From Candidatus Poriferihabitaceae bacterium (GTDB lineage: Bacteria > Pseudomonadota > Gammaproteobacteria > Arenicellales > Poriferihabitantaceae): 64,000 nt of DNA. The notes under the pieces are model-generated. The model ran no database searches and was not told where the DNA came from. It saw only the letters and a program-made list of their open reading frames with translations. The position numbers and the translations under genes were made by a program. The stretch lies in contig CBDFKV010000007.1 in assembly GCA_965249035.1 (NCBI GenBank), positions 640,313 to 704,312 of the forward strand, written 5' to 3'. Below are positions 3,187-61,790 of this stretch, one piece after another (within the stretch, counting starts at the first letter, position 1; every line of letters begins with the position of its first letter).

Positions 3187-3189
3187 AAA

Positions 3190-3669
3190 TTACCCCTTGG
3201 CAGCGCGTTCGCGTACTTGCTCCAAGACTTTGGTTGGGTGATCCGCCGCCTTGGGCACACGCTTCCAGTGCTTGATTAGCTTACCATCTGCGTCAATCCA
3301 AGCAGTTGAGCGAATTGTGCCGGTGACCTTTTTGCCATACATCATCTTTTCGCCCCACGCGCCATACTCAGCCATGACTTTTTTATCGGGGTCTGATAAC
3401 AAGGGGTAAGGAATACTGAACTGTTCTATAAAGTTTTGGTGCGATGTTGCGCCGTCCGGAGATACCCCGATAATTTCCACCCCCGCTTCTTGGTACTGCT
3501 CATAGAGCTCAGTAAAGCCTATCGCTTGCTTGGTGCAGCCAGGTGTATTGTCTCGCGGGTAAAAATAGAGGATCACTTGCTTGCCTCGAAAATCACTCAG
3601 CGTGGTTGCTTCTTCGTGCTGATTCGGCAAGGTGAAATCTGGTACAGCTGTATTTTCTTCTAAGATCAT
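3190..3669 (-). CDS. bcp: Thioredoxin-dependent peroxiredoxin Bcp
   Basis: 159 aa. YFYPRDNTPGCTKQ peroxidatic-cysteine motif. Confidence 0.9.
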   Translation of the reverse strand: MILEENTAVPDFTLPNQHEEATTLSDFRGKQVILYFYPRDNTPGCTKQAIGFTELYEQYQEAGVEIIGVSPDGATSHQNFIEQFSIPYPLLSDPDKKVMAEYGAWGEKMMYGKKVTGTIRSTAWIDADGKLIKHWKRVPKAADHPTKVLEQVRERAAKG

Positions 3670-4211
3670 TGGCTCTCACCTTCTTTAAAAGCACTCTCTT
3701 TAAGTGCATTTTCTTTGGTCTCTTCAGCGGTTGCAGCACCTAAGGGTAATTTGCGAGCAGGCGCGGACGGACGTGGCCCACCCAAGATCGGTCGCGGCCC
3801 GTTGGGCTTCGGTACTGGGCGCCTGCCTGGTTTTCCAGCTAGAGCACGATCTCCCGCACCACCGATGTCTTTATGGTCCATATCGACCGTACCCTTGAAC
3901 TGACAACCGTCTCCCAGCATCACACGTGGCGCACGAATATCGCCGTGAACCGTACCATTTGGCTTGATTTCAACCGATTCTGACCCCCTTAACTCCCCTC
4001 GAACCTCGCCCTCGACAACAATTATTTTAGCAATAACGTCTGCCTTAACTACACCCGTCTCCGCCACAATAATGTTGGCATCCTGCACGGTAATCGTGCC
4101 TTCAACGGTACCCTCAATAACCAAGTCTTCTTCACCACGGACGTGACCATCAACATGAATAGAGCGTCCTATGGTTGCCGTCGAGTGAACTTCCGGTTTT
4201 TTGTCAGTCAT
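3666..4211 (-). CDS. Bactofilin family cytoskeletal protein with a Pro/Gly-rich C-terminal tail
   Basis: 181 aa. Repetitive beta-helix pattern (I.G.V.G.I..) typical of DUF583/bactofilin. Stop overlaps the bcp start (ATGA). Confidence 0.85.
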   Translation of the reverse strand: MTDKKPEVHSTATIGRSIHVDGHVRGEEDLVIEGTVEGTITVQDANIIVAETGVVKADVIAKIIVVEGEVRGELRGSESVEIKPNGTVHGDIRAPRVMLGDGCQFKGTVDMDHKDIGGAGDRALAGKPGRRPVPKPNGPRPILGGPRPSAPARKLPLGAATAEETKENALKESAFKEGESQ

Positions 4212-4736: not shown

Positions 4737-5810
4737 GTGAATACGCGCTACGAAACTGATAACCTGCGAATCGTGTCTGTTAAAAGAATCCCACCCCCTG
4801 GGGAGGTGCACGCTCAGTACCCAATAAATGACGAAGCCGCAGCCACTACCTTTAGTACGCGCCATGCTATTGATGATGCACTTCATGATGAAGAAGATCG
4901 ACTGGTAGTCGTTTGCGGGCCCTGTTCAATTCACGACGTCGATGCGGCAATGGAGTATGCCCAGCAACTAAAAGTCTTGATTGATCAATACGCCGGTGAA
5001 TTGCTACTGATCATGCGCGTTTACTTTGAGAAACCACGCACTACGATTGGCTGGAAAGGTTTGATCAACGATCCTTTTCTGGATAATACCTTCCAAATCA
5101 ACAAAGGCATTCAAAAAGCACGCAAGCTGCTGTTAGACCTCAACATGATGGGTGTGCCTGCAGCCACTGAATACTTGGATATGCTATCGCCGCAGTATTA
5201 TTCCGACTTGATCTCATGGGGAGCGATCGGCGCCCGAACCACTGAAAGCCAAAGCCACCGTGAGCTTGCATCGGGTTTATCCTGCCCGGTTGGCTTTAAA
5301 AACGGCACTGACGGTAATATTCAAATTGCGGTCGACGCCATCGGTGCAGCCTCCAAGCCACACCATTTTCTAAGTCGCACCAAATCTGATACATCTGCGA
5401 TTTACGAAACCTCCGGCAACGACTGTTGCCATTTGATTTTGCGCGGCGGCACTGATGGCCCTAACTATAAGGCCAAAGATATCAACGACGCCTGTGAAAA
5501 GCTGAAAGATTCTGGTCTGAAAGAACTGGTTATGGTTGATCTCAGCCATGCCAATTCGCGCAAGGATCCCGACAGGCAAGTGGATGTGGCGGCAGACATT
5601 GCCCAGCAAATTGCTGGCGGTGAACACCGCGTCATGGGCGTCATGATCGAAAGCCATTTGGTCCACGGCAACCAAAAGCACGAACCAGGCAAAACCCTGG
5701 TTTATGGTCAAAGTATTACAGATGCCTGTATTGATATGACGCAAACCAAGGCGGTGCTTGCCAACTTAGCCGCTGCGGTGAAAACGCGAAGAGCCAATAA
5801 AGCAGGATAG
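4737..5810 (+). CDS. 3-deoxy-7-phosphoheptulonate (DAHP) synthase, class I; isozyme not assignable
   Basis: Track ORF is 4623..5810. Homology to AroF/G/H starts at DNLRI...DRLVVVCGPCSIHD, also KPRTTIGWKGLINDP. The in-frame GTG at 4737 gives the expected length of about 357 aa. The start is uncertain. Confidence 0.85.
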   Translation: MNTRYETDNLRIVSVKRIPPPGEVHAQYPINDEAAATTFSTRHAIDDALHDEEDRLVVVCGPCSIHDVDAAMEYAQQLKVLIDQYAGELLLIMRVYFEKPRTTIGWKGLINDPFLDNTFQINKGIQKARKLLLDLNMMGVPAATEYLDMLSPQYYSDLISWGAIGARTTESQSHRELASGLSCPVGFKNGTDGNIQIAVDAIGAASKPHHFLSRTKSDTSAIYETSGNDCCHLILRGGTDGPNYKAKDINDACEKLKDSGLKELVMVDLSHANSRKDPDRQVDVAADIAQQIAGGEHRVMGVMIESHLVHGNQKHEPGKTLVYGQSITDACIDMTQTKAVLANLAAAVKTRRANKAG

Positions 5811-6080
5811 CGTTTTCTACTGGCACTTTGACCAGTGACCGCTTGATTCACCTTCGTTTTACCAAGTGTCCGTCTTATACGGTGATCAATTATTTCATCG
5901 CTTGCGGGCTAACGGCCTAAGCATGATTGGTGATACCTTATTCGTGGCTGACGACCTTGGCACAGCGCGACTTGTAATGCGTGACCAACGTCATCCAATC
6001 ATCTCTTAATGACAAGACTAATCGGGCACTGGTTGATGCCACAGTAGCGCAAAACCTTGCTTCCCAACGAGGAGAAACTC

Positions 6081-7271
6081 ATGATCAAACCCCACGGCTC
6101 GGATACCTTAAACCCCTTATTCGTCGCTGACGATGCCGCTCGCTCCGCTCTGGCCAAAGAAGCGGAATCCTTGCCTTCAGTTATCGTTAGCTCTGCTGAC
6201 GCCGCCAACGCGGTGATGCTGGGCGCTGGTTATTTCAATCCACTGACCGGCTATATGAATAAAGCGGATGCCCTAAACGTTGCCAACAGTATGCACACAA
6301 CTTCGGGATTATTTTGGCCTACCCCCGTTGTGTGCTTGATTGACGATGACTCGGCGATTGTTGGGCACAAGCGCATCGCGTTGCGCGACCCGAATGTCGA
6401 CGGTAATCCAGTATTGGCGGTGATGGATATCGAAGCTGTTGAAACCTTTAGCGGTGAAGAAATGGCACTCATTTCTGAAAAAGTGTATCGCACCACTGAC
6501 CCCAAGCACCCTGGCCTTGAAGCGTTTAACGCCCAAGGCAATATTGCGCTGTCCGGGCCGATTCAAGTGCTTAATTACAGCTATTTTGAAACTGATTTCC
6601 CAAACACCTTCAAAACCGCCTACGAAATCCGAGCCGATATCGAAAAGGCTGGTTGGAAAAAGATCGTCGCCTTTCAAACCCGTAACCCCATGCACCGCGC
6701 GCACGAAGAATTGTGCCACATGGCAATGGATCGACTCGGCGCTGACGGCTTGGTGGTGCACATGCTGTTGGGTCAATTAAAACCCGGCGATATCCCCGCA
6801 GACGTGCGTGATAACGCCATCCGAACCATGGCCGATGCCTATTTCCCGCCCAATTCAGTGATGGTGACGGGTTATGGCTTTGACATGCTCTACGCCGGCC
6901 CACGCGAAGGCGTGCTGCATGCGGTGTTCCGACAAAACATGGGCGCTACCCACTTCATTATTGGCCGCGACCACGCAGGTGTTGGCGATTATTATGGCGA
7001 CTTTGATGCGCAGACTATTTTTCAGGATGAAGTACCCGATGATGCGCTGGAAATCGAAATCTTCGAAGCAGATCATACGGCTTATTCCAAGAAGCTGGAT
7101 GAAGTCGTGATGATGCGTGAAGTCACTAACCACACCAAAGAAGACTTTGTGTTGCTGTCGGGCACTCGCGTGCGTGAAATGCTAGGCAATGGTGAAGCAC
7201 CTCCGCCTGAGTTTTCGCGTCCGGAAGTCGCTAAGATACTGATTGATTACTACCAAAGTATCAGCAGCTAG
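6081..7271 (+). CDS. sat: Sulfate adenylyltransferase, homo-oligomeric Sat type
   Basis: [11 protein letters not shown] and GRDHAGVG motifs. The ATG at 6081 is preceded by GGAGA. The track ORF starts 24 nt upstream. Confidence 0.9.
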
Positions 7272-7294
7272 AAATCTGTACCTTGCTACAAACG

Positions 7295-7320
7295 ACGGGG
7301 CCAGTTGGCTCCGTTTTTTA
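7295..7320 (+). terminator. Rho-independent terminator after sat
   Basis: ACGGGGCC-agtt-GGCTCCGT stem (one G-U pair) followed by TTTTTT. Confidence 0.75.
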
Positions 7321-7334
7321 TGGGTACAGGCAGG

Positions 7335-7340
7335 TATAAT
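7335..7340 (+). promoter_or_regulatory. Candidate -10 hexamer (TATAAT) for queF
   Basis: Perfect TATAAT 38 nt upstream of the queF ATG, immediately after the sat terminator. No convincing -35 element. Confidence 0.35.
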
Positions 7341-7377
7341 CGTCTCTTTCTTGTTTCGACCAACCGACCATACCGCA

Positions 7378-7842
7378 ATGAATGAAACCAACGCGCTGGG
7401 GCTTACCCAATTGGGCAGCTCTACCGAAGCCCCTACTTCGCCTGATCAGGCAGTTTTGGAAATCGTCCCGAACCCTCACCCCGACACGCTATACGTTACG
7501 CGCTTTGTCACCCCTGAATTCACGTCGCTGTGCCCGGTAACCGGACAGCCCGACTTTGCCCACTTGGTGATCGACTATATTGCGGATCAATCTCTGGTTG
7601 AGAGTAAATCCTTAAAACTATTTTTGGCGAGTTTTCGCAATCATGGCAGCTTTCACGAAGGTTGCACGATTGAAATCGCTAAACGGTTGGTGGCTGCAGC
7701 CAGCCCCATTTGGCTACGAATCGGTGGCTATTGGTTCCCGCGCGGGGGTATTCCGATTGATGTTTTTTACCAAACAGGCAACCCGCCCAAAGGCGTATGG
7801 ATTCCAGACCAAGGGGTGCCCGCTTACCGTGGGCGTGGCTAA
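7378..7842 (+). CDS. queF: NADPH-dependent 7-cyano-7-deazaguanine (preQ0) reductase, short type
   Basis: [13 protein letters not shown] catalytic-cysteine motif and ESKSLKLFL motif. The ATG at 7378 (Met46 of the track ORF) lies after the terminator and promoter. Confidence 0.9.
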
Positions 7843-8332: not shown

Positions 8333-9916
8333 TTAACTTTCAGCTAAGGGTTTGTGCGCGAGTTCGTTAAGTTGCGCCGTTTCTTCTGCACTTAAGCCTA
8401 CCGCAACAGAATACCTTGGGTCTTCAATCACATTCACTTCTACCAAATTACCCGCTTTTTTAAGCAATAGACGGCACTCAGGGCTTAGGTGTTTCAGGTG
8501 CAAGCGCTTACCGGCTCGTTCATAGCGATCGGCCAGAATATCAATCGCTTCAATCGCAGAATGATCCGCTACTCGTGAATGCTTAAAATCAACCGTGACA
8601 TCATCGCTGTCTTCACGAGGGTTAAATATTTCTTGAAAATTGTGCGTGGAAGCAAAAAATAGGGGGCCATTGAGTTGATAGACTGTGTTACCCATTTTAT
8701 CGGTTTGCGTCACGGCATAGATATGCTTAGCGTGGTTCCAGGCAAATACTAATGCTGAAAGAATCACGCCTAACACCACTGCCACCGCGAGATCAGTTAA
8801 CACGGTGGTAATCGTCACGATCGCAGTAATCGCAATATCTGAAGCGGGTACTTTACCGAGCAAGCGTAAGCTGGACCAACTAAAGGTGCCCACCACCACC
8901 ATGAACATAACGCCAACCAACACCGCGACAGGGATCTGCTCAATTAAGGGGGCGCCGACTAAGATAATGGCTAACAAAGCCAATGCGGCAGTGATCCCAG
9001 ATAGTCTGCCGCGCCCACCCGAATTAATATTAATGATGCTTTGGCCAACCATTGCACAACCACCCATGCCCCCAAAAAACCCAGTTACGAGGTTGGCGAA
9101 GCCTTGTGCCAGGCTTTCGCGGTTTGCCTGACCACGAGTATCGGTCAAGGCATCGACTAAGTTTAGCGTTAATAAACTTTCTATCAAGCCCACCAGCGCC
9201 AACACAATTGAATACGGTAAAACGATCATAAACGTTTCAAAAGTGAGTGGGATCGCTGGAATATGGAATTGTGGCAAGCCACCGGCCACAGAGGCAATAT
9301 CACCGACTGTTCGCGTCTCTAAACCAGAGAAAATGACTACCAAGCTCAGCACCACAATCGCCACCAGTGTTGAAGGAACCGCCTTGGTCAACTTTGGCAA
9401 GAAATGAATGATAGCCATCGTTCCGAAAGCCAGCAGTAACATAATCATTAACGGGCTGCCGCTTATCCACTGACTGATGCCGACATCATCTACAAACTGA
9501 AATTGCTTCAGTTGTGCCAGGAAGATGACTAAGGCAAGGCCATTCACGAAGCCGAGGAAAACCGGATGGGGTACCAATCGAATGAATTTACCCAATCGCA
9601 ATGCACCAAAAACCATCTGGATCAGGCCCATGAGAATCACAGCCGCAAAAAGATATTCAACCCCATGCTCAACAACGAGACTGATCAGCACCACGGCAAT
9701 CGCGCCCGTTGCCCCTGTGATCATGCCTGGACGACCGCCCAATACTGCTGTTATCAAGCCCATGAAAAAAGCCGCATACAGGCCAACCAAGGGATGAACC
9801 TGCGCCACCAAGGCAAAGGCCACCGCTTCAGGAACCAAGGCTAATGCAACGGTTAAACCAGAAAGGAGATCATTTCTGACGTTAGCGGGTCGATAGCGGG
9901 CGAAAAGTTGAAACAT
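8333..9916 (-). CDS. SulP family anion (sulfate) permease with C-terminal STAS domain
   Basis: 527 aa, polytopic. SulP N-terminal signature (GLTVALALVPEAVAFA) plus a STAS-like tail. Confidence 0.88.
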   Translation of the reverse strand: MFQLFARYRPANVRNDLLSGLTVALALVPEAVAFALVAQVHPLVGLYAAFFMGLITAVLGGRPGMITGATGAIAVVLISLVVEHGVEYLFAAVILMGLIQMVFGALRLGKFIRLVPHPVFLGFVNGLALVIFLAQLKQFQFVDDVGISQWISGSPLMIMLLLAFGTMAIIHFLPKLTKAVPSTLVAIVVLSLVVIFSGLETRTVGDIASVAGGLPQFHIPAIPLTFETFMIVLPYSIVLALVGLIESLLTLNLVDALTDTRGQANRESLAQGFANLVTGFFGGMGGCAMVGQSIININSGGRGRLSGITAALALLAIILVGAPLIEQIPVAVLVGVMFMVVVGTFSWSSLRLLGKVPASDIAITAIVTITTVLTDLAVAVVLGVILSALVFAWNHAKHIYAVTQTDKMGNTVYQLNGPLFFASTHNFQEIFNPREDSDDVTVDFKHSRVADHSAIEAIDILADRYERAGKRLHLKHLSPECRLLLKKAGNLVEVNVIEDPRYSVAVGLSAEETAQLNELAHKPLAES

Positions 9917-10020
9917 GAAGTGCGCTTACCAAGCAAAATAGCGCGCGATTCTTCCACAACCGAGCATGGCATTCCAGAAGTATTTCACCAAAAGCTAATA
10001 TATTATTCCAGTGCTAAATG

Positions 10021-10485
10021 CTAAAGCGCTTTAGACATAAACAGGCTGTATGGGTCTTCCACATAGTCAGCGAACGGTTCGCAATACTCAAAGCCAAACT
10101 GCAGGTAAAGCTTGCGCGCAGGGATAAACACTGATGGTGAGCCAGTTTCCAGCCAAACGGTTGAATAGCCACGGCATTTTGCTTCTTCCAAAAGATGGCT
10201 AAGCAGCGTAGATGCAACGCCACGCCGAAGGGCCGAGCGCGACGTTCTCATCGATTTGATTTCCACGTTCAACTGGTCTAGTTCCTTCAACGCTCCACAG
10301 CCCGCTAATTGATTGTCAATCCAACCAGTCCAGAAGGTTATTTCAGACGCTCTCAGAGATTCCAAATCCAAAGTATGAACACTCTCCACTGGCGAGTGTT
10401 TCAGCATATCTTGATGATGTTCGAGAAGTAGTTCAGCAATAGGCTTACCACTTAAATCATCAACCCGAATCTCCAGATTAGTCAC
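10021..10485 (-). CDS. GNAT family N-acetyltransferase
   Basis: 154 aa. Acetyl-CoA-binding R..G.A..LL motif (RRGVASTLLSHLL). Confidence 0.8.
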   Translation of the reverse strand: MTNLEIRVDDLSGKPIAELLLEHHQDMLKHSPVESVHTLDLESLRASEITFWTGWIDNQLAGCGALKELDQLNVEIKSMRTSRSALRRGVASTLLSHLLEEAKCRGYSTVWLETGSPSVFIPARKLYLQFGFEYCEPFADYVEDPYSLFMSKAL

Positions 10486-10861
10486 CGATTCTGGCGGTCA
10501 CTTCGATCTCAAGCTTCATCTTGTCGTCCATCAAGCCTGCGACAAACATGGTTGCTGCTGGCCTGGAACGGCCAAAATACTTTTTAAATACCGGCCAGCA
10601 CGGCTCAAAATCAGCCTTATCCGGGAAGATGTAATGCACACGTACCACTTGATCAAGACTACTACCTGCTTCAAGCAATGCCTTTTCGATGTTGACTAAA
10701 CATTGCTCCGCTTGCTCAACCGGACTATCTGATATCGTCATTGATTCGTAATCAAAACCGGTCGTGCCTGCGACAAAGACATAGTCCCCATCGACCACTG
10801 CTCGTGAATATCCCACTTTGGATTCAAATTCAGAACCACTTGAAATGAGTTGTCTGTTCAT
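10478..10861 (-). CDS. RidA/YjgF family protein
   Basis: 127 aa, YjgF/Rid fold pattern. 8-nt overlap with the GNAT gene. Confidence 0.75.
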   Translation of the reverse strand: MNRQLISSGSEFESKVGYSRAVVDGDYVFVAGTTGFDYESMTISDSPVEQAEQCLVNIEKALLEAGSSLDQVVRVHYIFPDKADFEPCWPVFKKYFGRSRPAATMFVAGLMDDKMKLEIEVTARIGD

Positions 10862-10920
10862 ATTGCTGTGTTAATAAAATGGGTAATGTTAGCTGGATGA
10901 CCTCTCAACTGCTTTCTAAC

Positions 10921-12015
<1,095 letters not shown>

Positions 12016-50331: not shown

Positions 50332-52410
<2,079 letters not shown>

Positions 52411-52485
52411 GCAGTAACCCTATATACCCCAGCAATTTTTGCCGCTAGCGGGCTTTAGAAAGGTAGAAATAAGGGGCTGGCTATC

Positions 52486-52656
52486 GTTCCTAAGAGAGCG
52501 ATTATTTCGCAAGGTGATCTGTTCAAGGTTCACATGACAGACCTAATCAACCTGAAGCACCCCCTTTTGCCGTCTGTCGGGTTGGTTGACCAGGAACGGC
52601 TCGATGTTGATACCAAACGCAGCAGCCTCGGAGTCAGACTAGCTCAATTTGTGTGA
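52486..52656 (+). pseudogene. IS5-family transposase relic, N-terminal (DUF772) fragment
   Basis: Translates as VPKRAIISQGDLFKVHMTDLINLKHPLLPSVGLVDQERLDVDTKRSSLGVRLAQFV*. The PK....QGDLF......IN.KHPL pattern is the N-terminus of about 470-aa IS5-family transposases. No start codon, and truncated after about 70 residues. Confidence 0.7.
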
Positions 52657-52663
52657 TTGAGCT
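52641..52663. repeat. Inverted repeat / hairpin at the left junction of the 7.9-kb module
   Basis: AGCTCAAT-ttgtgtg-ATTGAGCT, perfect 8-bp arms, 30 nt downstream of the C-N hydrolase stop. No T-tract. Confidence 0.5.
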
Positions 52664-52692
52664 TAGGCTGAAACAGTTCTAATCAGGCGGGA

Positions 52693-53541
52693 CTAATTAC
52701 GCTCCGGTTTTTTCAAGTCCCCCAAGCTGTCTAGCGTATTTGAACTCGCCCCCAATTTATACTGCGGGTAAGCAATTTCGCCATCGCGAAAACTTTTTAA
52801 AGGCTGGCCCAGTCCCAGAATACCTGTTTCACGTGTATAGCCGACCCTGTCCAGATCAAGAATTACAGGGATAGGCTCAGCTGTGTCGCCGGACTGGTGA
52901 ATAATATCTCCTTCCGGACCAACAATAATGGACTTCCCATTACCGAGATCTCCGCAGGAATTGATATCAACGAAATAGCATTGATTGGTTACAGCGCTGG
53001 CGCGTGCAATAGAAAGCTCAAGATCTCTATCGATAGTATTGGTTAAAGTTGGATGCAGAATCACTTCTGCCCCCAGATAGGCCAATGCCCTAACGGTTTC
53101 CGGAAACCACATGTCGTAACAAATTGACACCCCGAAACAGCCCACCCCGGGTATATCAAATACCGTATGTTGGTCACCACTATCTATGCCGCTTTCGTAA
53201 GGCTCAAATGGATACAGCTTTCTATGCCGAGCCACAAGGTCTCCCTCCGGATTTATAACGGGTGCTGTGTTGTAAATTTTCTCCCCATCCATTTCATACA
53301 TGGAACCGGGAATCAGCCAAATATTATGCTTTTTGGCTAAACTGCAAAAATGATTGACAGCAGGGCCTGGGATCGGTTGAGCGGAACGCAGCGATGTTCC
53401 AAAGATGCTGAGCTCACCGAACATGATTAATTGAACCCAGGGAAATCGGTGCACGACATTGAGGATTTGTTTTGTCATGACGTCAAGATTGTCGCCGTTA
53501 ATCGCTTTCATCTGGACACCTGCGACTGCAAATTTATTCAT
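52693..53541 (-). CDS. Carbon-nitrogen hydrolase (nitrilase superfamily amidase)
   Basis: 282 aa. Glu-Lys-Cys triad motifs FGE (E43), RHRKLYPF (K108), SICYDMWFPE (C141). Confidence 0.88.
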   Translation of the reverse strand: MNKFAVAGVQMKAINGDNLDVMTKQILNVVHRFPWVQLIMFGELSIFGTSLRSAQPIPGPAVNHFCSLAKKHNIWLIPGSMYEMDGEKIYNTAPVINPEGDLVARHRKLYPFEPYESGIDSGDQHTVFDIPGVGCFGVSICYDMWFPETVRALAYLGAEVILHPTLTNTIDRDLELSIARASAVTNQCYFVDINSCGDLGNGKSIIVGPEGDIIHQSGDTAEPIPVILDLDRVGYTRETGILGLGQPLKSFRDGEIAYPQYKLGASSNTLDSLGDLKKPERN

Positions 53542-53544
53542 ATC

Positions 53545-54498
53545 TTAATTACTGGTAATTGGGTTAAAACAGGCGACAGCACCCGTAGAATCTTCCGATA
53601 TCAACCGGGGCTGATGCGAGATGCATTTATCGCTTGATAAATCGCAACGAGAACAAAAAGCGCACCCATTCGGCAAATTGAGCGGATTGGGTAACTCACC
53701 TTTCAGCACGCGTAATTGATTGCGCATAGTCGGATCAATAGAAGGAACAGAATCTAGTAGTCCACGCGTGTAGGGATGCTTTGGATTTTCAAATATCGCT
53801 GTAACAGAACCTTGCTCGACGATCTTTCCTAGATACATGACCATCACGTCATCAGCGATGTACTCGACCGTTGCCAGATTGTGGGATATAAACAAATAAG
53901 CCAACCCTAAGCGGCTTTTCAACTCCTTCAATAAATTAAGCACCTGCGCCTGTACCGAAACATCCAATGCTGCAGTCGGCTCATCCAGTATCAGCACCTG
54001 AGGTTCAAGTGCCAAAGCTCTGGCAATGGCAATTCGTTGCCGTTGCCCTCCTGAAAATTGATGAGGAAAACGATTCAAGTGCTCCGACCCTAGCCCGACA
54101 TCTTCTAAATGCTGGACTACCCTATTAGTGAGTTCCCTGCCCTTAATCCCGTAACAGACAACCAACGGCTCTGCGACGATATTTTTCAGCCTCATCTTTG
54201 GATTTAAAGAAGAATAAGGGTTTTGAAAAACAATGCTGACGTTCCGTCGATACCGCTGTAATTCGCCTAAGCTCATCTCTCTGACGCTCTGCCCGGCAAA
54301 ATTAATGTCCCCCGACTCAGACTCAATCAGGCGTAAAACAGCAGAAGCAACTGTACTTTTCCCGCAACCGGACTCGCCGACCAATGCCAGTGTTTGCCCA
54401 CGCTTAAGCTCGAAACTCACATCGTTTACGGCATTAATCACCCCGTCAGTGGTATGGAATTGTTTGTGCAAATTCACCACTGATAACGTTCCATTCAT
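53545..54498 (-). CDS. Oligopeptide/dipeptide-type ABC transporter ATP-binding protein (DppF/OppF-like)
   Basis: Walker A GESGCGKST, FSGGQRQR, ILDEPT, and a C-terminal oligo_HPY region. Start at Met13 of the track ORF, giving an ATGA overlap with the upstream stop. Confidence 0.9.
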   Translation of the reverse strand: MNGTLSVVNLHKQFHTTDGVINAVNDVSFELKRGQTLALVGESGCGKSTVASAVLRLIESESGDINFAGQSVREMSLGELQRYRRNVSIVFQNPYSSLNPKMRLKNIVAEPLVVCYGIKGRELTNRVVQHLEDVGLGSEHLNRFPHQFSGGQRQRIAIARALALEPQVLILDEPTAALDVSVQAQVLNLLKELKSRLGLAYLFISHNLATVEYIADDVMVMYLGKIVEQGSVTAIFENPKHPYTRGLLDSVPSIDPTMRNQLRVLKGELPNPLNLPNGCAFCSRCDLSSDKCISHQPRLISEDSTGAVACFNPITSN

Positions 54499-55475
54499 TG
54501 GACCGCGTCCCCCTGTATCCCGCTCATATGGCAAGCCACGCTGTGTGTGGTAGTTACATTGTTCGTAAGAGGTGAACGTGTTTGGCAGAGTTCAATGTCC
54601 TCGCTACACCGCGCCTGAAAGGCACAGCCCGTGGGTAAGGCCGCCATATCCGGCATTTGTCCGGCAATATAGTCAAGTTTCCTGTCTTTGCATCCTATAG
54701 TCGGAACAGTTTGCAATAATTTTCGGGTATAGGGATGAGCAGGATGACTAAATACATCGTCTACCTCGCCCGATTCAACAATCTCACCCGCATACATTAC
54801 TGAGACGCGATCACATAATGATGCCACCACCCCTAAATCATGCGTAATAAATAGTACCGCCAAATTATTTTTGGCTGTCAGTTCTCTAATGAGCAACAAA
54901 ATCTGCGCCTGGATGGTGACATCTAACGCTGTAGTTGGCTCATCCGCGATCAGCAAATCAGGTTTACAGGCAATCGCCATGGCAATCATAATGCGCTGTA
55001 ACTGGCCACCGGATAGTTGGTGAGGGTATTTCTTTAAGGTTTCAGATGGGTTTGGAATATGAACTGACTTCAGGGCACTAAGTCCTTCATCGGCGGCTGC
55101 TCGATGAGACATCGGTAAGCTGAAGCGAATCGCATCACAGAGTTGATCACCAATACAAATAAAAGGGTTGAGCGCGGTCATCGGATTTTGAAAAATCATC
55201 GCGGCTGTACCTCCGCGCAATTTACAAAGCTGACTGTCAGGCATATCCAACACTTCCTGGCCATTAATGCGGATATGGCCACTGGATTTGCCTGGCTTTG
55301 GAACCAGCCCCAGACAGGACAAAGCGGTCATCGACTTGCCACTGCCTGACTCCCCCACCAAGCCCACTATTTCCCCACTGTTTACCTCCAAAGAACACCC
55401 TCGTACAACCTCAATTTGATTGCTCAGTTTGGGGAAGGTGACACGCAACTCCTGAATATTTAAAACTGAATCCAT
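54495..55475 (-). CDS. Oligopeptide/dipeptide-type ABC transporter ATP-binding protein (DppD/OppD-like)
   Basis: 326 aa. GESGSGKSM, LSGGQLQR, LIADEPTTALD. Confidence 0.9.
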   Translation of the reverse strand: MDSVLNIQELRVTFPKLSNQIEVVRGCSLEVNSGEIVGLVGESGSGKSMTALSCLGLVPKPGKSSGHIRINGQEVLDMPDSQLCKLRGGTAAMIFQNPMTALNPFICIGDQLCDAIRFSLPMSHRAAADEGLSALKSVHIPNPSETLKKYPHQLSGGQLQRIMIAMAIACKPDLLIADEPTTALDVTIQAQILLLIRELTAKNNLAVLFITHDLGVVASLCDRVSVMYAGEIVESGEVDDVFSHPAHPYTRKLLQTVPTIGCKDRKLDYIAGQMPDMAALPTGCAFQARCSEDIELCQTRSPLTNNVTTTHSVACHMSGIQGDAVQ

Positions 55476-56359
55476 TACTGAGAATTTCCGTGTTTTGGGT
55501 CGAGCAGATCCCTGATCCCATCACCGAGTAAATTTACCGCTAGAACGGTAATAAATATCGCAAAACCCGGAGCGGCTGCGGTCCACCAGAAATCAAGAAA
55601 CTTTGAACGAGACAATGCCGCCATCAGCCCCCACTCAATGGTCGGTGGGCGCGCCCCGATACCAATAAAACTTAAAGAGGCCGCAGCCAAAATGGTGTAA
55701 CCAAAATCCATGGATGCCTGGACGATCACAGGTGTGGTAGCGTTGGGCAGTGCATGCCTGACCATAATTCGAAAATGACCGACACCCATTACTCGGGCAG
55801 CATCGATATATAACTCCTTTTTAATTGCCAGTACCGAGCTACGCATAATTCTGGCGTACCACGGAAACCAGGAAATGGCCAATGCCAACATCGCATTAAA
55901 CAGCCCAGCTCCTAGCGCGGCGGTAATCGCGATGGGCAGTAAGAGCGGAGGAAAAGCCAGAAAAATATCCGAAATTCGCATCAAGATAGTATCGATACGA
56001 CCACCAAAATACCCAGAAACAAGGCCAATGGGAACGCCTATTAATACTGATAATACCAGCACAGAGAAGCCGATCACCAGTGACGTCCGCGCACCGTAAA
56101 TTACTCGGGAGAAAAGGTCTCGGCCCAACTCATCCGTACCCATCAAATGGGTCAGCCCAGGTGGTAAGAGCTTGTCACTAAAATTGATTTTTGCAGGGTC
56201 AAAAGGTGCTATCAGAGGTGCCATGACCGCCATCAGCACAACCAGAATAAATAGCGCGCTACCAAAAACAAATAAAATATTACTGGAAATAAAATACCGG
56301 CACTTCTCAGCCCAGAAAGGTCCCTCGGAAAGCATAGACTCAGCCGCCTGATTAGACAC
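55475..56359 (-). CDS. ABC transporter permease (DppC/OppC-like)
   Basis: 294 aa. N-terminal OppC_N-type helix and an EAA loop (DAARVMGVGHFRIM). Confidence 0.9.
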   Translation of the reverse strand: MSNQAAESMLSEGPFWAEKCRYFISSNILFVFGSALFILVVLMAVMAPLIAPFDPAKINFSDKLLPPGLTHLMGTDELGRDLFSRVIYGARTSLVIGFSVLVLSVLIGVPIGLVSGYFGGRIDTILMRISDIFLAFPPLLLPIAITAALGAGLFNAMLALAISWFPWYARIMRSSVLAIKKELYIDAARVMGVGHFRIMVRHALPNATTPVIVQASMDFGYTILAAASLSFIGIGARPPTIEWGLMAALSRSKFLDFWWTAAAPGFAIFITVLAVNLLGDGIRDLLDPKHGNSQ

Positions 56360-56361
56360 GT

Positions 56362-57378
56362 TCAGGAGGCCTCAAGGCGTGGATCTGCCACGAAATAGAG
56401 TAGGTCAACAATCAGATTGATACTCAAATAAATCGTTGCTAAAAACAAGGTTACGCCCATCACTGCGGGAAAGTCGCTTTGGGTAATTGCACCGACGACA
56501 TAGCCGCCAAGGCCAGGCCAGTCAAATATATATTCAACAACCACCGAACCACCGAGCATAAATCCATATGTCAGACCAATGATGGTCATCATGGGAATCA
56601 AAGTGGCCTTTAGCGCATAGCGAAAATACACTAGCCTGTCAGGCAAACCGAATGCTCTGGCGGTTCGTATGTAATCCTCACTCAACACTTCTACCATGGT
56701 ATTGCGCGTAATTCTGATGATCACAGAAAGCGAAGCAATGCTCAGGGTTAATACCGGTAACACCAGGTGTGCAGCCGCACTTTTAAACGCCACCCAATGC
56801 CCTGACAACAGGGTATCAATTAAATAAATTCCCGTGACTCTATCAAAAGGAAAATCAAGCAGCACTTCTACATTCATTCGCCCCTGGAGTGGCAGCCACC
56901 TCAACCATCCGTAGAACACCATCTGCAATATCATTCCAATCAGGAATATGGGTAGTGCCATACCGGCGATGGAGAAACTCCTAGTGATATGGTCACTGAA
57001 TGTGTTTTGACGAACCGCCGACAACACGCCCAGTGGAATTCCAAGCACGATAACCAACATAACCGCCAAAGTGGTTAACTCAAACGTAGCTGTCATCCGT
57101 TCCAGTAAATCATCAAGCACCGGTTGTCGAGTACGCAGGCTTATTCCAAAGTCACCCTGTAACACCCCCGATACGTAATGGATAAATTGAACCGGAATGG
57201 GATGATCCAGGCCATATTCAGCCCGAGCCAGGTCTATCTGCTCCTGGGTGGGGCGGTGACCTAGCATCATCTCTATAGGCGAGCCCGGTAATAAGCGGCT
57301 CAGCGCAAATGTGACAATCAATACCCCGACAAGAATAAGGATCATCAGCATCAGGCGCTGAGCAATGTGTTTCCACAT
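56362..57378 (-). CDS. ABC transporter permease (DppB/OppB-like)
   Basis: 338 aa. BPD_transp_1 core with SEDYIRTARAFGL. Confidence 0.9.
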   Translation of the reverse strand: MWKHIAQRLMLMILILVGVLIVTFALSRLLPGSPIEMMLGHRPTQEQIDLARAEYGLDHPIPVQFIHYVSGVLQGDFGISLRTRQPVLDDLLERMTATFELTTLAVMLVIVLGIPLGVLSAVRQNTFSDHITRSFSIAGMALPIFLIGMILQMVFYGWLRWLPLQGRMNVEVLLDFPFDRVTGIYLIDTLLSGHWVAFKSAAAHLVLPVLTLSIASLSVIIRITRNTMVEVLSEDYIRTARAFGLPDRLVYFRYALKATLIPMMTIIGLTYGFMLGGSVVVEYIFDWPGLGGYVVGAITQSDFPAVMGVTLFLATIYLSINLIVDLLYFVADPRLEAS

Positions 57379-57405
57379 TTTGGTTAACTCATCTTTGTTA
57401 AACGC

Positions 57406-58962
57406 TTATTGTGAAAGTCGATGGAAAAATACCGCGTCGTAGGCTGGGTTCGCTTCCAGCCCTTTAATAGAGGATGCTCGTGCCACTCTCTTTTTAATAT
57501 CGGCAAAGAATATAGCGACCGCGTCATCCATCAAAATTTGCTGTGCTTTGGCATAATTGTCGATGGCCTTTTCGCGATCCGATCCTTCAAGTTCGATCCC
57601 TTCATTCAATAGCTTGTCGTACTCGGGGTTAGAATAGTGGGAAAGATTAAATAAAGCTTTTTCTTCAGTACGGAACAAACCAACCATCCAATCATTAGGG
57701 GTAGCATAAGTGGGCCACCAGGTCATGGATTGCATGTTGGGAGCAGTCTTAAGGGTTTTTGCTTTATCCCAAATTACACCCCACTCTCCGGGTAACAGCT
57801 CAACTTCAACGCCGACTTGGCGAGCATTTTCTTGAAACAAAAGCGCTGAGTTTTTGTACTCTTCAGATGTTCCAATGTACGCGATGCTGACTTTCCTCTC
57901 TGATTCAGGCACGCCAGATTCCTCGATCAACATTTTGGCTTTTTCCAGGTCGAATTCAGGCGCCTGAATGGCAGCGTTATGGCCCCACATCGTTGCAGGA
58001 ACAGGCCCGCGTCCCACCTCAGCGTGACCCGCGTAAATATCATTTACCACCGTGTCATAATCCCACATACGAGTAAGGGCTTGGCGAAATTTCTTGTTAT
58101 TCGTTGGTGCTTTTTGGGTGTTTATCAGAAACTGTGAGTTCTTCCACGACGGGATGGCATACGCGGTCAGACCTTCTTCTTGGTTTACCGAATCCACCAT
58201 ATCGGCTGGCACCAACGAAATAAAATCCGCCTCACCGGCTTTCAGCATTTGTAACTGAGTTGAATTCTCGGTGACGACTTTAAGGATCACACGGTCGAAA
58301 TTGTCATCTTTCCAGCCTCCCCAGTAATCGCCATTCTTTTCAAGCACAACCTGCTGGGCTTTATCCCATTGTCGAACCGCATAAGGCCCGGTGCCTGCTG
58401 CATTTCCCTGGTTGAACCAGTCAGCTCCATTTGCAGCAGCCTTGGGTGAATACATGTAGGCGGCGTACTGCGAAGACGCAATCAGGTCCAGCGGCTGAGG
58501 TGTCTTGGTTTTAATCACCAAAGTGTGACCATCCGCATTGATTGACTCCACGCTGGCCCAGATATAGTGAGCACCCTTTTTGAGTTCCATCGTTCTTTCG
58601 AGCGATTTCTTGGCCGCTTCAGCGTTAAAAACTTCGCCATCATGGAACTTGACGTTCTCGCGTAGATTAAAGGTCCAGGTCAAACCATCATTACTCACCG
58701 ACCAGTCTGTTGCTAGCGCCGGCGTGAACTGCTCTTTGCTTCCCGGTGGGTTGTACCACATTAAAGGCTCGTACACGTTTACCAGCATCACCACCTCGAG
58801 CGAAAATGCGCTGGCAGGATCCCAGTCCTTAATATCGCCATACATGGCGTATGTAACCGTTTTATTATCTGCCTGGGCGACAGAGCCGGCGAATAACATG
58901 TTTGCAAAAATCAGGGCAAACGAAGCCGTCAGTAGTTTTTTAAATAGATTTATGTATCTCAT
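57406..58962 (-). CDS. ABC transporter substrate-binding protein, family 5 (peptide/nickel/opine)
   Basis: 518 aa. Signal peptide ending AGSVAQA; SBP_bac_5 pattern (LATDWSVSNDGLTWTFNLRENVKFHDG). Confidence 0.9.
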   Translation of the reverse strand: MRYINLFKKLLTASFALIFANMLFAGSVAQADNKTVTYAMYGDIKDWDPASAFSLEVVMLVNVYEPLMWYNPPGSKEQFTPALATDWSVSNDGLTWTFNLRENVKFHDGEVFNAEAAKKSLERTMELKKGAHYIWASVESINADGHTLVIKTKTPQPLDLIASSQYAAYMYSPKAAANGADWFNQGNAAGTGPYAVRQWDKAQQVVLEKNGDYWGGWKDDNFDRVILKVVTENSTQLQMLKAGEADFISLVPADMVDSVNQEEGLTAYAIPSWKNSQFLINTQKAPTNNKKFRQALTRMWDYDTVVNDIYAGHAEVGRGPVPATMWGHNAAIQAPEFDLEKAKMLIEESGVPESERKVSIAYIGTSEEYKNSALLFQENARQVGVEVELLPGEWGVIWDKAKTLKTAPNMQSMTWWPTYATPNDWMVGLFRTEEKALFNLSHYSNPEYDKLLNEGIELEGSDREKAIDNYAKAQQILMDDAVAIFFADIKKRVARASSIKGLEANPAYDAVFFHRLSQ

Positions 58963-59000
58963 TTCGATCCTCTTTATAGTCTTGGGTGCGTGTGGTTCAG

Positions 59001-59014
59001 TCAGAATATTCTGA
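59001..59014. promoter_or_regulatory. Perfect 14-bp palindrome in the 5' leader of the binding-protein gene
   Basis: TCAGAATATTCTGA, located between the sigma-54 promoter and the RBS. Confidence 0.35.
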
Positions 59015-59034
59015 CAAAACCGTCACATAAGCGA

Positions 59035-59050
59035 AGCAAAATACATGCCA
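59035..59050 (-). promoter_or_regulatory. Sigma-54 (-24/-12) promoter for the ABC/C-N hydrolase operon
   Basis: The minus strand reads TTGGCATGTATTTTGCTT, which is TGGCA-N6-TTGC with exact GG-N10-GC spacing. It lies about 75 nt upstream of the SBP ATG and directly downstream of a sigma-54 activator gene. Confidence 0.75.
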
Positions 59051-59163
59051 ATTTTTATAAATACTAATTATCCTATAATTTACAAAGAGTTACCTATTTA
59101 TTTACCGGTCAATAATTATTCACAGTTGGATAACAGCAGGTTTATATTCATAACTGAATGAAA

Positions 59164-60570
59164 TTAAACCGCCCCGGTTCGAAATCCGTGTTTTTTCAGG
59201 AGTCTGGCAACAGTGGGTTGAGAAATGCCGAGCGCACCAGCAATTTGACTTTGAGTTTTGTATCGACGGCAGGCTGAAGACAGACACTCGCTTTCGACCG
59301 CGTCCAGGGATTGCTTAAGGTTTGCAGTGACTTGTCTGGTTCTTAGCGGTGATACTGTATCCAGTATATTTTGAGGAAGATCGCTTATGGTGATTTCATC
59401 GGACTGACTGAGTACATAACTGTGTTCCAATATATTTTCCAGTTCGCGAACGTTGCCCGGATAGTGATATCGGGAAAGAAGTTCCATCGCATGCTGGTCA
59501 ATTGATTTAGCCACCTTGTGTTGATTAGCAAGCCTTTGAAGAAAATGGGCTACCAATGGAAATAGGTCATCGTACCGCTCAGACAAAGACGGTAGGTCGA
59601 TCGGCACCACATTGAGGCGATACCATAAATCTTTACGAAACGCTCCCTGCTCTACTTTTGATTCCAGATCACTGTTGGTAGCCGCGATAAGCCTAACATC
59701 GACCTGCTGAACTCGTCTCCCCCCAACTTTTATAAAGCCCTGGGTATCGAGAAAGGTCAGTAGCTTTACTTGCACATCAAGTGAAAATGCGTCTATTTCA
59801 TCAAGAAATAACGTTCCACCATCAGCGGCTTCAACCAGGCCACTTTTACCCCCAGGTCGCGCACCCGTAAACGCCCCGTCGGCATAGCCGAATAACTCTG
59901 CTTCCGCCAGCGAATCAGGAATAGCACCACAATTGAGCGTTAGGAAAGACTTGTCTCGGCGACTAGATCCATCATGGATAAGTCGCGCAATCATGCTTTT
60001 GCCGGTTCCCGATGCACCCGTGAGCAATACGGTTGTGTCAAATTCAGCGACGCGGAAAACCATTTCCATTACCCTTTCCATGGGTTCACTGATTGCAACG
60101 ATTTCCTGAAGTTTCAAGCCCTTCATTTTCATTGATAGTAACTCTGACTGGATTTTTTTTGCCACCTCCTGGTTTTGCTCGACCTCCTCTTTAAGCATAT
60201 TTAACTCGGTCATATCCCGCTCACTGCCAACGACGAACTTAACGTTTCCCTGTTTATCGAATATGGGCACGCCATTGACCAGCAAGGTACGCTTTGATTT
60301 GACTTTCTGGATAATGGTGACAGGCTTCTTTTCGCGCAATACCCTTTGCGTTACATCCGTGTCGATGTTTCCCATGCTCAATATCTCTTCTACCGATTTG
60401 CCACATACTTCTTCTCGCTTAATATTATTCAGCGCCTCACACGCACTGTTTATCCAAAGCAGTTTGGGCGTTGCATCGCATACCCATACCCCATCAGTCA
60501 TCGCTTCAAATATTTGCTCGAGTTCATTAGCGGCAAATACATCCTGTACATTTTCCAGCTGTAATTTCAT
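59164..60570 (-). CDS. Sigma-54-dependent transcriptional activator (PAS sensor - AAA+ - Fis-type HTH)
   Basis: 468 aa. PAS (DGVWVCD...LWINSACEALN), Walker A GASGTGKS, GAFTGA motif, ESELFGY-like (AELFGY), and a C-terminal HTH (QSQIAGALGISQPTVARLLKKHG). Confidence 0.92.
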   Translation of the reverse strand: MKLQLENVQDVFAANELEQIFEAMTDGVWVCDATPKLLWINSACEALNNIKREEVCGKSVEEILSMGNIDTDVTQRVLREKKPVTIIQKVKSKRTLLVNGVPIFDKQGNVKFVVGSERDMTELNMLKEEVEQNQEVAKKIQSELLSMKMKGLKLQEIVAISEPMERVMEMVFRVAEFDTTVLLTGASGTGKSMIARLIHDGSSRRDKSFLTLNCGAIPDSLAEAELFGYADGAFTGARPGGKSGLVEAADGGTLFLDEIDAFSLDVQVKLLTFLDTQGFIKVGGRRVQQVDVRLIAATNSDLESKVEQGAFRKDLWYRLNVVPIDLPSLSERYDDLFPLVAHFLQRLANQHKVAKSIDQHAMELLSRYHYPGNVRELENILEHSYVLSQSDEITISDLPQNILDTVSPLRTRQVTANLKQSLDAVESECLSSACRRYKTQSQIAGALGISQPTVARLLKKHGFRTGAV

Positions 60571-60572
60571 GA

Positions 60573-61013
60573 CTGCTATATAGACCCGCCGTTTTATCCA
60601 TTATTGAATACTTTAACGTACCATACATCAACTAGAACTCGATATCATTTTAGAGCTATCTGTAGCACGCCGAAAGCATCTACGGTGATACTTAGGTTGA
60701 ACTTGGGTGCAGAATCCTTGCTAACAACTATTTTGTGAAGAAGGGCGTGGCTGGCTTTTAACGGCCACCTTTGAGGTGGTCTTGAACGCAGCACGACCAC
60801 CTATATCAGCTTCAATCGGGATGTCGCACCCACGTACAGGAGAAGAATATTGCCTTTCCAACCGACACAGCCAGCTCGATTACCAATCACGCCAATAGTC
60901 GGTTAAGATTGCCCCGGGCAGGAAACTATTTTACGTCAGACCTATCAAAAGGACAGCCGATTATGACCATGAAAGCAGGTCGTTATGCGCGTGCCAAGCA
61001 GTTCAAACGGATG
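60573..61013 (+). pseudogene. IS5-family transposase relic, middle fragment (frameshifted, with internal stops)
   Basis: Frame 0: LLYRPAVLSIIEYFNVPYIN*. Frame +1: ...STVILRLNLGAESLLTTIL*. Frame 0 again: ...CRTHVQEKNIAFPTDTASS...KAGRYARAKQFKRM. The motifs LS..(W).NPY.QYF, (W)RKR.GEE, VQEK.IAFPTD and GRYA.AKQFKR occur in this order in about 470-aa IS5-family transposases. The DDE catalytic C-terminal half is missing; the MTAP gene begins at 61035. Confidence 0.7.
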
Positions 61014-61034
61014 CTCATAACCAATATTGAGCAC

Positions 61035-61790
61035 TTACTCCCTAGCAAATAACTGCTGCAAGACCTCAATTACGTCGTTCATCCCAGCCTCAAGATGCTT
61101 TTGGATATCGGTAAAACTTATTGCGGGCGCCCTTCCAGCGGCCTCGTTGACCACTAAAGAGAGCGCTGCATACGGCAAATTCAGTTCAGCCGCGAGCGCC
61201 GCCTCAGGCATGCCGGTCATACCAACGATCGTGCCGCCATCGCGCTCAATCCGGTCAATTTCTGCTGCGGTTTCGAGCCGTGGCCCTTGGGTAGCGGCGT
61301 ACACGCCACTATCATGCACAGCCACACCGGCTTTTTTCGCCGCTTTGAGCAGTGTTTGGCGTAATGACTCATTGTAGGGCTTGGTGAATTCAATATGAAA
61401 AACCTCACCCGATTCACCGTCAAAATAGGTATGCTCGCGGCCGTAGGTGTAGTCAATTATTTGGTCAGGAATCACGATCTGGCGGGGTTTTAAGTCCGGC
61501 AAGATACCACCCACCGCACCCACACCAATCACCTGTTTGACGCCAAGCTGCTTCAAGGCCCACAAATTAGCGCGGTAGTTGACGCGGTGTGGTGGGATCA
61601 CGTGTTTCAGGCCGTGGCGCGGTAAAAAGACCACGCCTTGATCGCCCATACGGCCTAAAGTCATCGGTGCAGAGGGGTCGCCATACGGTGTGCGCCCAAC
61701 TTGTCGGTGCACATCGGTCAGCACATCAAGCTGATTCAAGCCGCTGCCACCTAAAATGCCCGTTGTATACTCCACGTTTGATCGGTCCAT
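61035..61790 (-). CDS. S-methyl-5'-thioadenosine (or thioinosine) phosphorylase, PNP family 2
   Basis: 251 aa. GILGGSG, FLPRHG, YRANLWALK, and VGMTGMPEA motifs. Confidence 0.88.
   Translation of the reverse strand: MDRSNVEYTTGILGGSGLNQLDVLTDVHRQVGRTPYGDPSAPMTLGRMGDQGVVFLPRHGLKHVIPPHRVNYRANLWALKQLGVKQVIGVGAVGGILPDLKPRQIVIPDQIIDYTYGREHTYFDGESGEVFHIEFTKPYNESLRQTLLKAAKKAGVAVHDSGVYAATQGPRLETAAEIDRIERDGGTIVGMTGMPEAALAAELNLPYAALSLVVNEAAGRAPAISFTDIQKHLEAGMNDVIEVLQQLFARE

Follow-up and report, generated by a model that had tools for sequence, protein, structure and literature searches.

A predicted sigma-54-regulated ABC importer and amidase operon bracketed by two decayed copies of one IS5-family element in a gammaproteobacterial genome

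Background

Composite transposons with direct repeats of one insertion sequence (IS), for example Tn9 with its arrangement IS1-cat-IS1, are among the described systems closest to the locus reported here. The locus lies in a 64,000-nt stretch of DNA (hereafter the window) from Candidatus Poriferihabitaceae bacterium (contig CBDFKV010000007.1, positions 640,313 to 704,312 of the forward strand), and all coordinates without a locus number are positions in this window. It comprises a module of seven genes, which encode a sigma-54 activator, an Opp/Dpp-type ATP-binding cassette (ABC) importer and a nitrilase-superfamily amidase, together with short non-coding flanks. DNA alignments to full-length relatives showed that the operon is bracketed by two separate decayed copies of one IS5-family element. 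The explanation that we favor, with a probability of about 0.6, is that the operon was brought in by a composite transposon, now decayed, with direct repeats of an IS5-family element; at the least, the locus is an IS-bracketed acquired segment. IS5 targets and duplicates the 4-bp sequence YTAR, and IS5-type elements prefer YTAR sites in intergenic DNA (PMC5009759).

Results and discussion

Two separate IS copies flank the operon

The module is separated from the upstream gene fadH by a gap of 282 nt and from the downstream MTAP-like gene by a gap of 464 nt. A stitched translation of both gaps matched IS5-family transposases, and reference elements were taken from the contigs of the best protein matches (contigs and loci are cited by L numbers). 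The closest intact relative, isA, is a 1551-bp IS in L083 with an intact transposase of 428 amino acids, which scored 532 bits on NF033578 (cut-off 275) and contains DUF772 and DDE. The second reference, isD, is the copy in L085, which measures 1552 bp after removal of a nested IS3-family element. The IS ends were set by comparing L083, L084 and L085, three separate contexts in which similarity sets in exactly at IS nt 1; this comparison revealed the terminal repeats, which an inverted-repeat finder run on L083 had missed. The terminal inverted repeats of the reference copies are short and imperfect, and a 4-bp duplication flanks the copies (CTAG on both sides in L085, CTAG/CTAA in L083). The window element is an unnamed IS5-family member with 66-84% DNA identity to its closest metagenomic copies.

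The left remnant, between fadH and the amidase gene, consists of two parts and an adjoining target site:

52491 to 52600, + strand: IS nt 130 to ~245, transposase codons ~4-44 (..ISQGDLFKVHMTDLINLKHPL..VDQERLD), by local alignment and blastn
52599 to 52692, + strand: IS nt 1456-1549, by blastn and alignment to the L085 IS
52693 to 52696, no strand assigned: CTAA (TTAG on the - strand), YTAR target site adjoining the IS right end, by comparison with L085, L083 and L173

In the 5' part, positions 52491-52595 aligned to IS nt 130-234 (codons 4-39), and by eye the match extends to about nt 245. Its local-alignment scores of 88 (isD) and 74 (isA) compare with a mean of 19 and a maximum of 33 for shuffled sequence, and blastn returned an E value of 1e-11 (52491-52552/52595). 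The 3' part matched the final 97 nt of the IS in L085 (52599-52695; 82-84% identity; blastn E 8e-21). It carries the final 17 codons of the transposase (..SLGVRLAQFV*; isD has ..NLGARLAQFV*) with the authentic stop at 52654-52656. After them come the 3' tail and, at 52681-52692, the right inverted repeat AATCAGGCGGGA. The two parts are joined by an internal deletion of ~1.2 kb, with its junction at ~52596-52606 and a short GAT/CGAT microhomology. Upstream of 52491, local alignment gave scores at the shuffled level, and neither the leader nor the left inverted repeat of the IS (nt 1-129) was found. As judged from these alignments, the left remnant (52491-52692) is an internally deleted IS copy that keeps its right end, and not an N-terminal half. 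An initial annotation of this DNA had assigned the whole left piece to residues 1-70 of the transposase; the N-terminal portion covers only ~52491-52600 (residues ~4-44), and 52599-52695 is the IS 3' end.

The first three bases of the target site (52693-52695) double as the TAG stop codon of the amidase gene, and L173, which has no IS there, shows the native sequence CGTATTTAG at the corresponding position, its TTAG lying at the amidase stop. The left junction is a true transposition junction, at which the IS landed on the amidase stop codon. As to the YTAR duplication, CTAA stands beside the surviving right repeat and the partner site at the left end is deleted; no pair is visible.

The left remnant also retains an open frame of 57 codons (52486-52656, + strand) from transposase codon ~3 to the authentic stop, which fuses the N-terminus to the last 17 residues and is devoid of the family start codon. 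A listed open reading frame (ORF) of 40 amino acids (52534-52656) begins at an internal ATG. A run of 57 stop-free codons here may have arisen by chance (~6%).

The right remnant, between the activator and the MTAP-like gene, likewise consists of two parts:

60657 to 60727, + strand: part a, IS nt 318-389, codons ~67-90 (YL*HAESIYGDT*VE-LGCRI = MYLQHAEGISDEAIVERWVQN), by local alignment
60725 to 61013, + strand: part b, IS nt 458-751, codons 114-211, by blastn and NF033578

Part a scored 45 in local alignment, a value that none of 300 shuffles reached (mean 20, standard deviation 3, maximum 35). IS nt 390-457 are deleted between the two parts. Part b, which carries stops and frameshifts, gave 71% identity in blastn (E 1e-32; across the references 60725/60737-61013, E 7e-28 to 1e-32). 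When the translated pieces were searched against Pfam and NCBIfam, the right piece matched (NF033578 profile positions 141-202, E 7e-7) and the left piece gave no match. The right copy has no IS sequence beyond nt 751, that is, the DDE domain and the right inverted repeat are missing, and neither a left inverted repeat nor a leader was found at this copy. A blastn search of the whole window detected no other piece of the IS and nothing matching IS nt 752-1455, consistent with the earlier observation that the DDE half is absent.

Along the + strand, the order is IS(130-245), IS(1456-1552, right inverted repeat included), module, IS(318-389, 458-751). Both remnants face the same way, and their similarity to the same references is about equal. 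Both copies are dead: start codon, DDE domain and left inverted repeat are missing from each, and the right inverted repeat is present in the left copy only.

Several statements of the initial annotation held at the DNA level. Both flanks do carry + strand pieces of one IS5-family element, as blastn and the alignments to the L083 and L085 ISs established, and in VQEKNIAFPTD and GRYARAKQFKRM it had picked out genuine transposase motifs (residues ~150-211). The right piece had been placed from 60573 to about residue 250; the IS starts at 60657 (nt 318, residue ~67), ends at residue 211 and lacks nt 390-457 inside. Positions 60571-60656 align to the LysR-activator intergenic region of L168/L173, and a reading of this segment as IS was discarded, with ~25% identity to the IS at every offset tested. 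The apparent motif 'LL.....LS..E.F..PY' is a chance match within module DNA, and 'RLNLGAE' represents the VERWVQN codons read out of frame. Similarly, 'VDQERLDVDTKRSSLGVRLAQFV' at residues 37-65 and 'LLY..LS..PY' at residues 65-90 were overturned by DNA alignments.

The shared orientation and N-to-C order of the remnants had suggested a single resident IS, cut in two by the module, with halves that abut at the same residue. Set against this, the last 17 codons lie left of the module, as do the right inverted repeat and its target site (52681-52696), the supposed abutting sequence 60573-60656 is module DNA and not IS, and the breakpoints are 73 nt apart. Specifically, ~73 nt (about 23 codons) are missing between the N-terminal breakpoint (~nt 245) and the start of the right piece (nt 318). 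Two IS copies are required because one insertion cannot put the right terminus of an IS before the inserted DNA. This contradicts a simple split, which we regard as highly improbable. Thus, both fragments do match one IS family, as proposed, but their coordinates on it (nt ~245 and nt 318) are not contiguous. The alternative that had been mentioned, a decayed composite element, fits best. The case corrects a tempting misreading, in which short translated motifs suggested matching halves and DNA alignment to full-length relatives shows otherwise.

A tblastn search of the stitched pseudo-protein against plasmids had given collinearity with IS5 transposases over ~96% of the length, seemingly as complementary halves. 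This candidate was rejected, as the DNA-level alignment shows that BLAST bridged non-homologous stretches. A blastn search of the left piece against plasmids yielded no match.

Related IS copies were themselves found interrupted, duplicated or frameshifted. The IS5-family copy in L085 (2375-5238), a frameshifted pseudogene, is truly split at IS nt ~205 by the IS3-family element (2580-3891), which has rve/HTH_21 genes, TG..CA ends and a 3-bp CTT duplication. Both IS copies of L083 lie within a 2.36-kb inverted duplication (5400-7800 and 9500-11900; 99.45% identical) that reaches past the IS ends, and one of the two is frameshifted. Additionally, a frameshifted, unannotated transposase gene of a related IS5-family element is located on plasmid pLMG25378 of Neptuniibacter halophilus (L081:1494-2760), where there is no listed gene.

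The module and its exact boundaries in relatives

The gene order of the region was derived from the ORF listing and Pfam, which gave the following module genes:

52693 to 58962, - strand: six-gene operon for SBP_bac_5, two permeases, two ATPases and CN_hydrolase amidase (Pfam)
57406 to 58962, - strand: SBP_bac_5 binding protein gene (Pfam)
52693 to 53541, - strand: CN_hydrolase amidase gene (Pfam)
59164 to 60570, - strand: PAS-domain sigma-54 activator (Pfam Sigma54_activat, E 1e-62; PAS; HTH_50)

Relatives were sought by a metagenome scan with the activator, and the closest loci come from its 90% cluster. The order of the module genes was the same in the ten loci that span it (L088, L089, L091, L096-L098, L101, L102, L168 and L173), and shorter metagenome contigs carry fragments of the module. 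Positions 52693-60653 were 87.5% identical in DNA to L168/L173 over 7.97 kb, with module proteins 89-96% identical (activator 92-93%). In L168-L173, the native context is a LysR gene, the module, a C45/AAT acyltransferase-hydrolase gene, Pirin and DoxX, with no IS, fadH or MTAP. The native locus has eight genes, of which the window holds precisely the intergenic region and the activator through to the amidase stop. In the relatives, the LysR stop lies 89 nt before the activator start, and the C45 gene (PF03417, NF040521) begins 27 nt past the amidase stop:

L173:17906-18934, L168:17135-18163 and L091:7591-8619: C45 autoproteolytic acyltransferase/hydrolase gene (PF03417, NF040521)

This C45 gene is probably the last gene of the operon in the closest relatives, and its absence from the window is explained by the IS end on the amidase stop codon. 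The left boundary of the shared DNA is the TTAG at this stop codon, and the right boundary is the TTAG at 60650-60653, which occurs natively in L173 as CTAA 8 nt past the LysR stop. The shared DNA thus has a YTAR site next to an IS remnant at each end; on the right, the bases AGC (60654-60656) stand between TTAG and the start of IS nt 318 at 60657. Nothing of the LysR and C45 donor context survives outside the IS remnants. A test of the DNA following the amidase gene of L091 for a decayed IS end gave no significant result. In PLSDB, no plasmid carried the module, and only generic ABC-transporter similarity was found.

These boundaries bear on the idea that the module came by some other route, or was there already, and that two copies of the same IS later hit adjacent YTAR sites, with deletions removing LysR, C45 and most of both copies, so that the IS took no part in the transfer. 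In its favor, the IS-end/target junction (52681-52696) shows only transposition beside the amidase gene, IS5-type elements have the preference for intergenic YTAR sites described above, the outer ends and the outer duplication are absent, and the spot downstream of fadH is variable and prone to mobile elements in relatives. However, the shared DNA stops exactly at both remnants with no LysR or C45 outside, both copies have the same orientation, and the model needs two-sided deletions that halt at or inside the IS copies, which is more events than one IS-bounded move. We consider independent insertions unlikely, albeit the foremost of the alternatives.

Host context and horizontal acquisition

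The module is embedded between the following features:

50353 to 52410, + strand: fadH-like 2,4-dienoyl-CoA reductase (Pfam Oxidored_FMN and Pyr_redox_2)
52411 to 52490, no strand assigned: fadH 3' flank, not IS-derived (local alignment to IS nt 1-135 at the shuffled level)
61014 to 61034, no strand assigned: 21-nt spacer outside the IS alignments, which end at 61013; precedes the stop codon of the next gene
61035 to 61790, - strand: MTAP/MTIP-type nucleoside phosphorylase, intact (NF006599, 357 bits, cut-off 223; TIGR01694, 281 bits)

fadH is the final gene of a conserved AraC-ECH-fadH block, whose order is kept in L174-L176 (68-78% protein identity), and the synteny ends right after fadH. 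The three proteins were 68-79% identical to their best relatives, and the best non-self match of fadH among 5.8 billion proteins reached 79% identity. For the MTAP-like protein, the best identity was 66% among the matches listed, without synteny, in the GTDB representatives (one genome per species); its homologues align through residues 244-251. None of the core genes examined had a relative above 79% protein identity, and the best matches were named Thiotrichaceae, Thiolinea or Oceanospirillaceae. These comparisons place the host in a poorly sampled gammaproteobacterial lineage.

The DNA following fadH in L174 (8433-14046) contains RelE/HTH and HipA toxin-antitoxin genes and IS110- and IS3-type transposases. 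L176 and L167 have unrelated genes at the spot following fadH. The spot after fadH is variable, receiving mobile DNA in more than one lineage.

The horizontal acquisition of the module, already suspected in the initial annotation, is supported by its 87.5% DNA identity to L168/L173, where it stands in a different, IS-free context. Such identity to another lineage, beside host genes as isolated as these, argues for horizontal transfer. The GC content of the module (47.1%, against 49.6% in the rest) is weakly in line with this.

A second alternative holds that an IS resident between fadH and the MTAP-like gene served as a recombination anchor for the incoming module with a second IS copy, by homologous recombination within the IS on one side and an illegitimate join to resident nt ~318 on the other. 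In that case, the resident copy would have left the N-terminal part and the right piece, the 3'-end piece would have arrived with the module, and nt ~245-1455 would have been deleted later. This would account for the sharp join between the module and internal IS sequence. It also agrees with the same orientation, right order and lack of overlap of the N-terminal part (ending at ~nt 245) and the right piece (beginning at nt 318); by our estimate, two independent breakpoints in an element of 1552 nt would lie no more than ~73 nt apart with a chance of ~10%. Yet the model still requires two IS copies and a later internal deletion, and it leaves the 73-nt gap unexplained. Moreover, the right boundary of the module lies on a YTAR site, as expected of a transposition junction and not of an illegitimate join, and no relative with a resident IS at the fadH-MTAP site was found. 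We hold such an anchor to be doubtful, and less probable than independent insertions. Equally doubtful is the mechanism that would follow if the complementarity of the pieces were not due to chance. A resident IS would have captured DNA by homology-facilitated illegitimate recombination, and the YTAR preference of IS5-type elements, which includes the stop codons TAA and TAG, would have cut the operon at exact gene boundaries to give a minimal mobile cassette.

A decayed composite transposon as the most probable explanation

A composite transposon would explain the locus as follows. In the donor, two IS copies would have inserted at YTAR sites flanking the segment, forming a composite transposon with direct repeats, and the composite unit would then have moved into the variable spot downstream of fadH. 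Subsequent deletions would have removed both outer ends and both transposase genes, fixing the operon in place. As the alignments show, the left copy inserted at the amidase-stop TTAG, and deletions later took away its 5' ~129 nt and ~1.2 kb from within. From the right copy, nt 390-457 and everything past nt 751 are gone, and it now begins at nt 318, three bases from the TTAG at 60650-60653. For the intact unit, the predicted inner junction on the amidase side is the amidase end ...CGTAATTAG followed by TCCCGCCTGATT, and on the activator side a left inverted repeat (CTAG/TTAG + TCGCCCCTG...) joined to the TTAG upstream of the activator.

In line with this scheme, two copies of the same IS (52491-52692 and 60657-61013) flank the cargo, and the same cargo occurs in L168/L173 without an IS, with boundaries at the IS junctions. 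Functional outer ends and an outer duplication are lacking: nt 1-129 are gone from the left copy and nt 752-1552 from the right.

A number of observations weigh against a composite transposon. Both outer IS ends are gone and there is no outer duplication; we infer composite transposition and do not demonstrate it, and no intact IS-module-IS unit occurred in any collection searched. The right junction joins the module to internal IS nt 318 and not to the left inverted repeat, so that insertion of the right copy at the TTAG of 60650-60653 is itself something we infer, and in AT-rich intergenic DNA the chance that some YTAR lies no more than a few bases from a given point is roughly 10%. The remnants share no overlapping IS segment and thus provide no direct copy-to-copy identity, and no close host relative was available to show an empty fadH-MTAP site. 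Furthermore, the GC content is weakly different (47.1% in the module and 49.6% in the rest), with a per-gene gap of 2.7 points, or about 1.3 standard deviations; differences in GC and in GC at third codon positions (GC3) are too weak to be decisive. Since the outer ends are gone and no close host relative is available, the choice among a composite transposon, independent insertions and a resident anchor rests on parsimony and the YTAR coincidence, and not on direct proof.

Predicted regulation of the acquired operon

The regulatory DNA retained with the module comprises two features:

59036 to 59050, - strand: sigma-54 -24/-12 promoter TGGCATGTATTTTGC (TGGCAT-N5-TTTGC), 74 nt upstream of the start codon of the SBP_bac_5 binding protein gene
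60571 to 60656, - strand: upstream region native to the activator, carrying the conserved block TATGGTACGTTAAAGTATTCAATAATGGATAA; alignable with L087, L090 and L168-L173

A matching -24/-12 element was found in the same intergenic region in all ten loci examined. Upstream of the activator, the conserved TATGGTA..TATTCAATAATGRATAA block is retained, and the window keeps 86 nt where the whole native intergenic region of L173 measures 89 nt. The activator had been thought to depend on a promoter inside IS-derived DNA. As 86 of ~89 native nt are retained, including the conserved block, an IS-borne promoter is not needed. Scans of both junctions for sigma-70 promoters and terminators gave nothing useful. 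The operon is probably still functional in the manner of its relatives; the activator would be expressed from its native upstream DNA, and the conserved -24/-12 promoter would serve the transporter and amidase genes.

AT-rich TTCA-N-TGAATA palindromes that are conserved in relatives occur on the - strand at 60590-60625 and 59110-59160, namely TATTCAATAATGGATAA upstream of the activator and TTCATTCAGTTATGAATA and TGTGAATAATTATT upstream of the sigma-54 promoter. They are candidate activator-binding sites, and if they bind the activator, autoregulation would be implied.

Comparison with known systems

For annotation, the locus yields two IS5-family pseudogene remnants, a native activator upstream region and a missing C45 gene. 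Here, a regulated uptake/amidase operon has been cut back to precise gene boundaries, and decay of the ISs has fixed it in a new genome. Genome scars of this sort are ordinary, and the locus opens no new biological question.

Compared with IS5-family elements of the NF033578 type, among which E. coli IS5 is the archetype for YTAR targeting, the window remnants align to the references, have transposase homology and keep one inverted repeat with the adjacent CTAA; an intact DDE domain and the full pair of terminal repeats are absent.

The nested insertion in L085 concerns the same IS5-family element, also interrupted. There, the halves are contiguous, whereas the window pieces are non-contiguous, and the IS right end precedes the intervening DNA, which carries neither ends nor a transposase itself.

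The cargo resembles operons for ABC uptake and amidases that depend on sigma-54 and a bacterial enhancer-binding protein. It has a separately transcribed PAS/AAA+/HTH activator and a predicted, conserved -24/-12 element before the binding-protein gene, followed by Opp/Dpp-type genes and CN_hydrolase. In its closest relatives, a C45 gene follows the amidase gene; the window copy has none.

The arrangement as a whole resembles Tn9-type composites: co-oriented copies of one IS bracket the cargo, which is bounded by IS insertion sites and is also found elsewhere without the IS. It differs from them in that the outer ends, the transposases and the outer duplication have been lost, leaving an immobile element that would once have been mobile.

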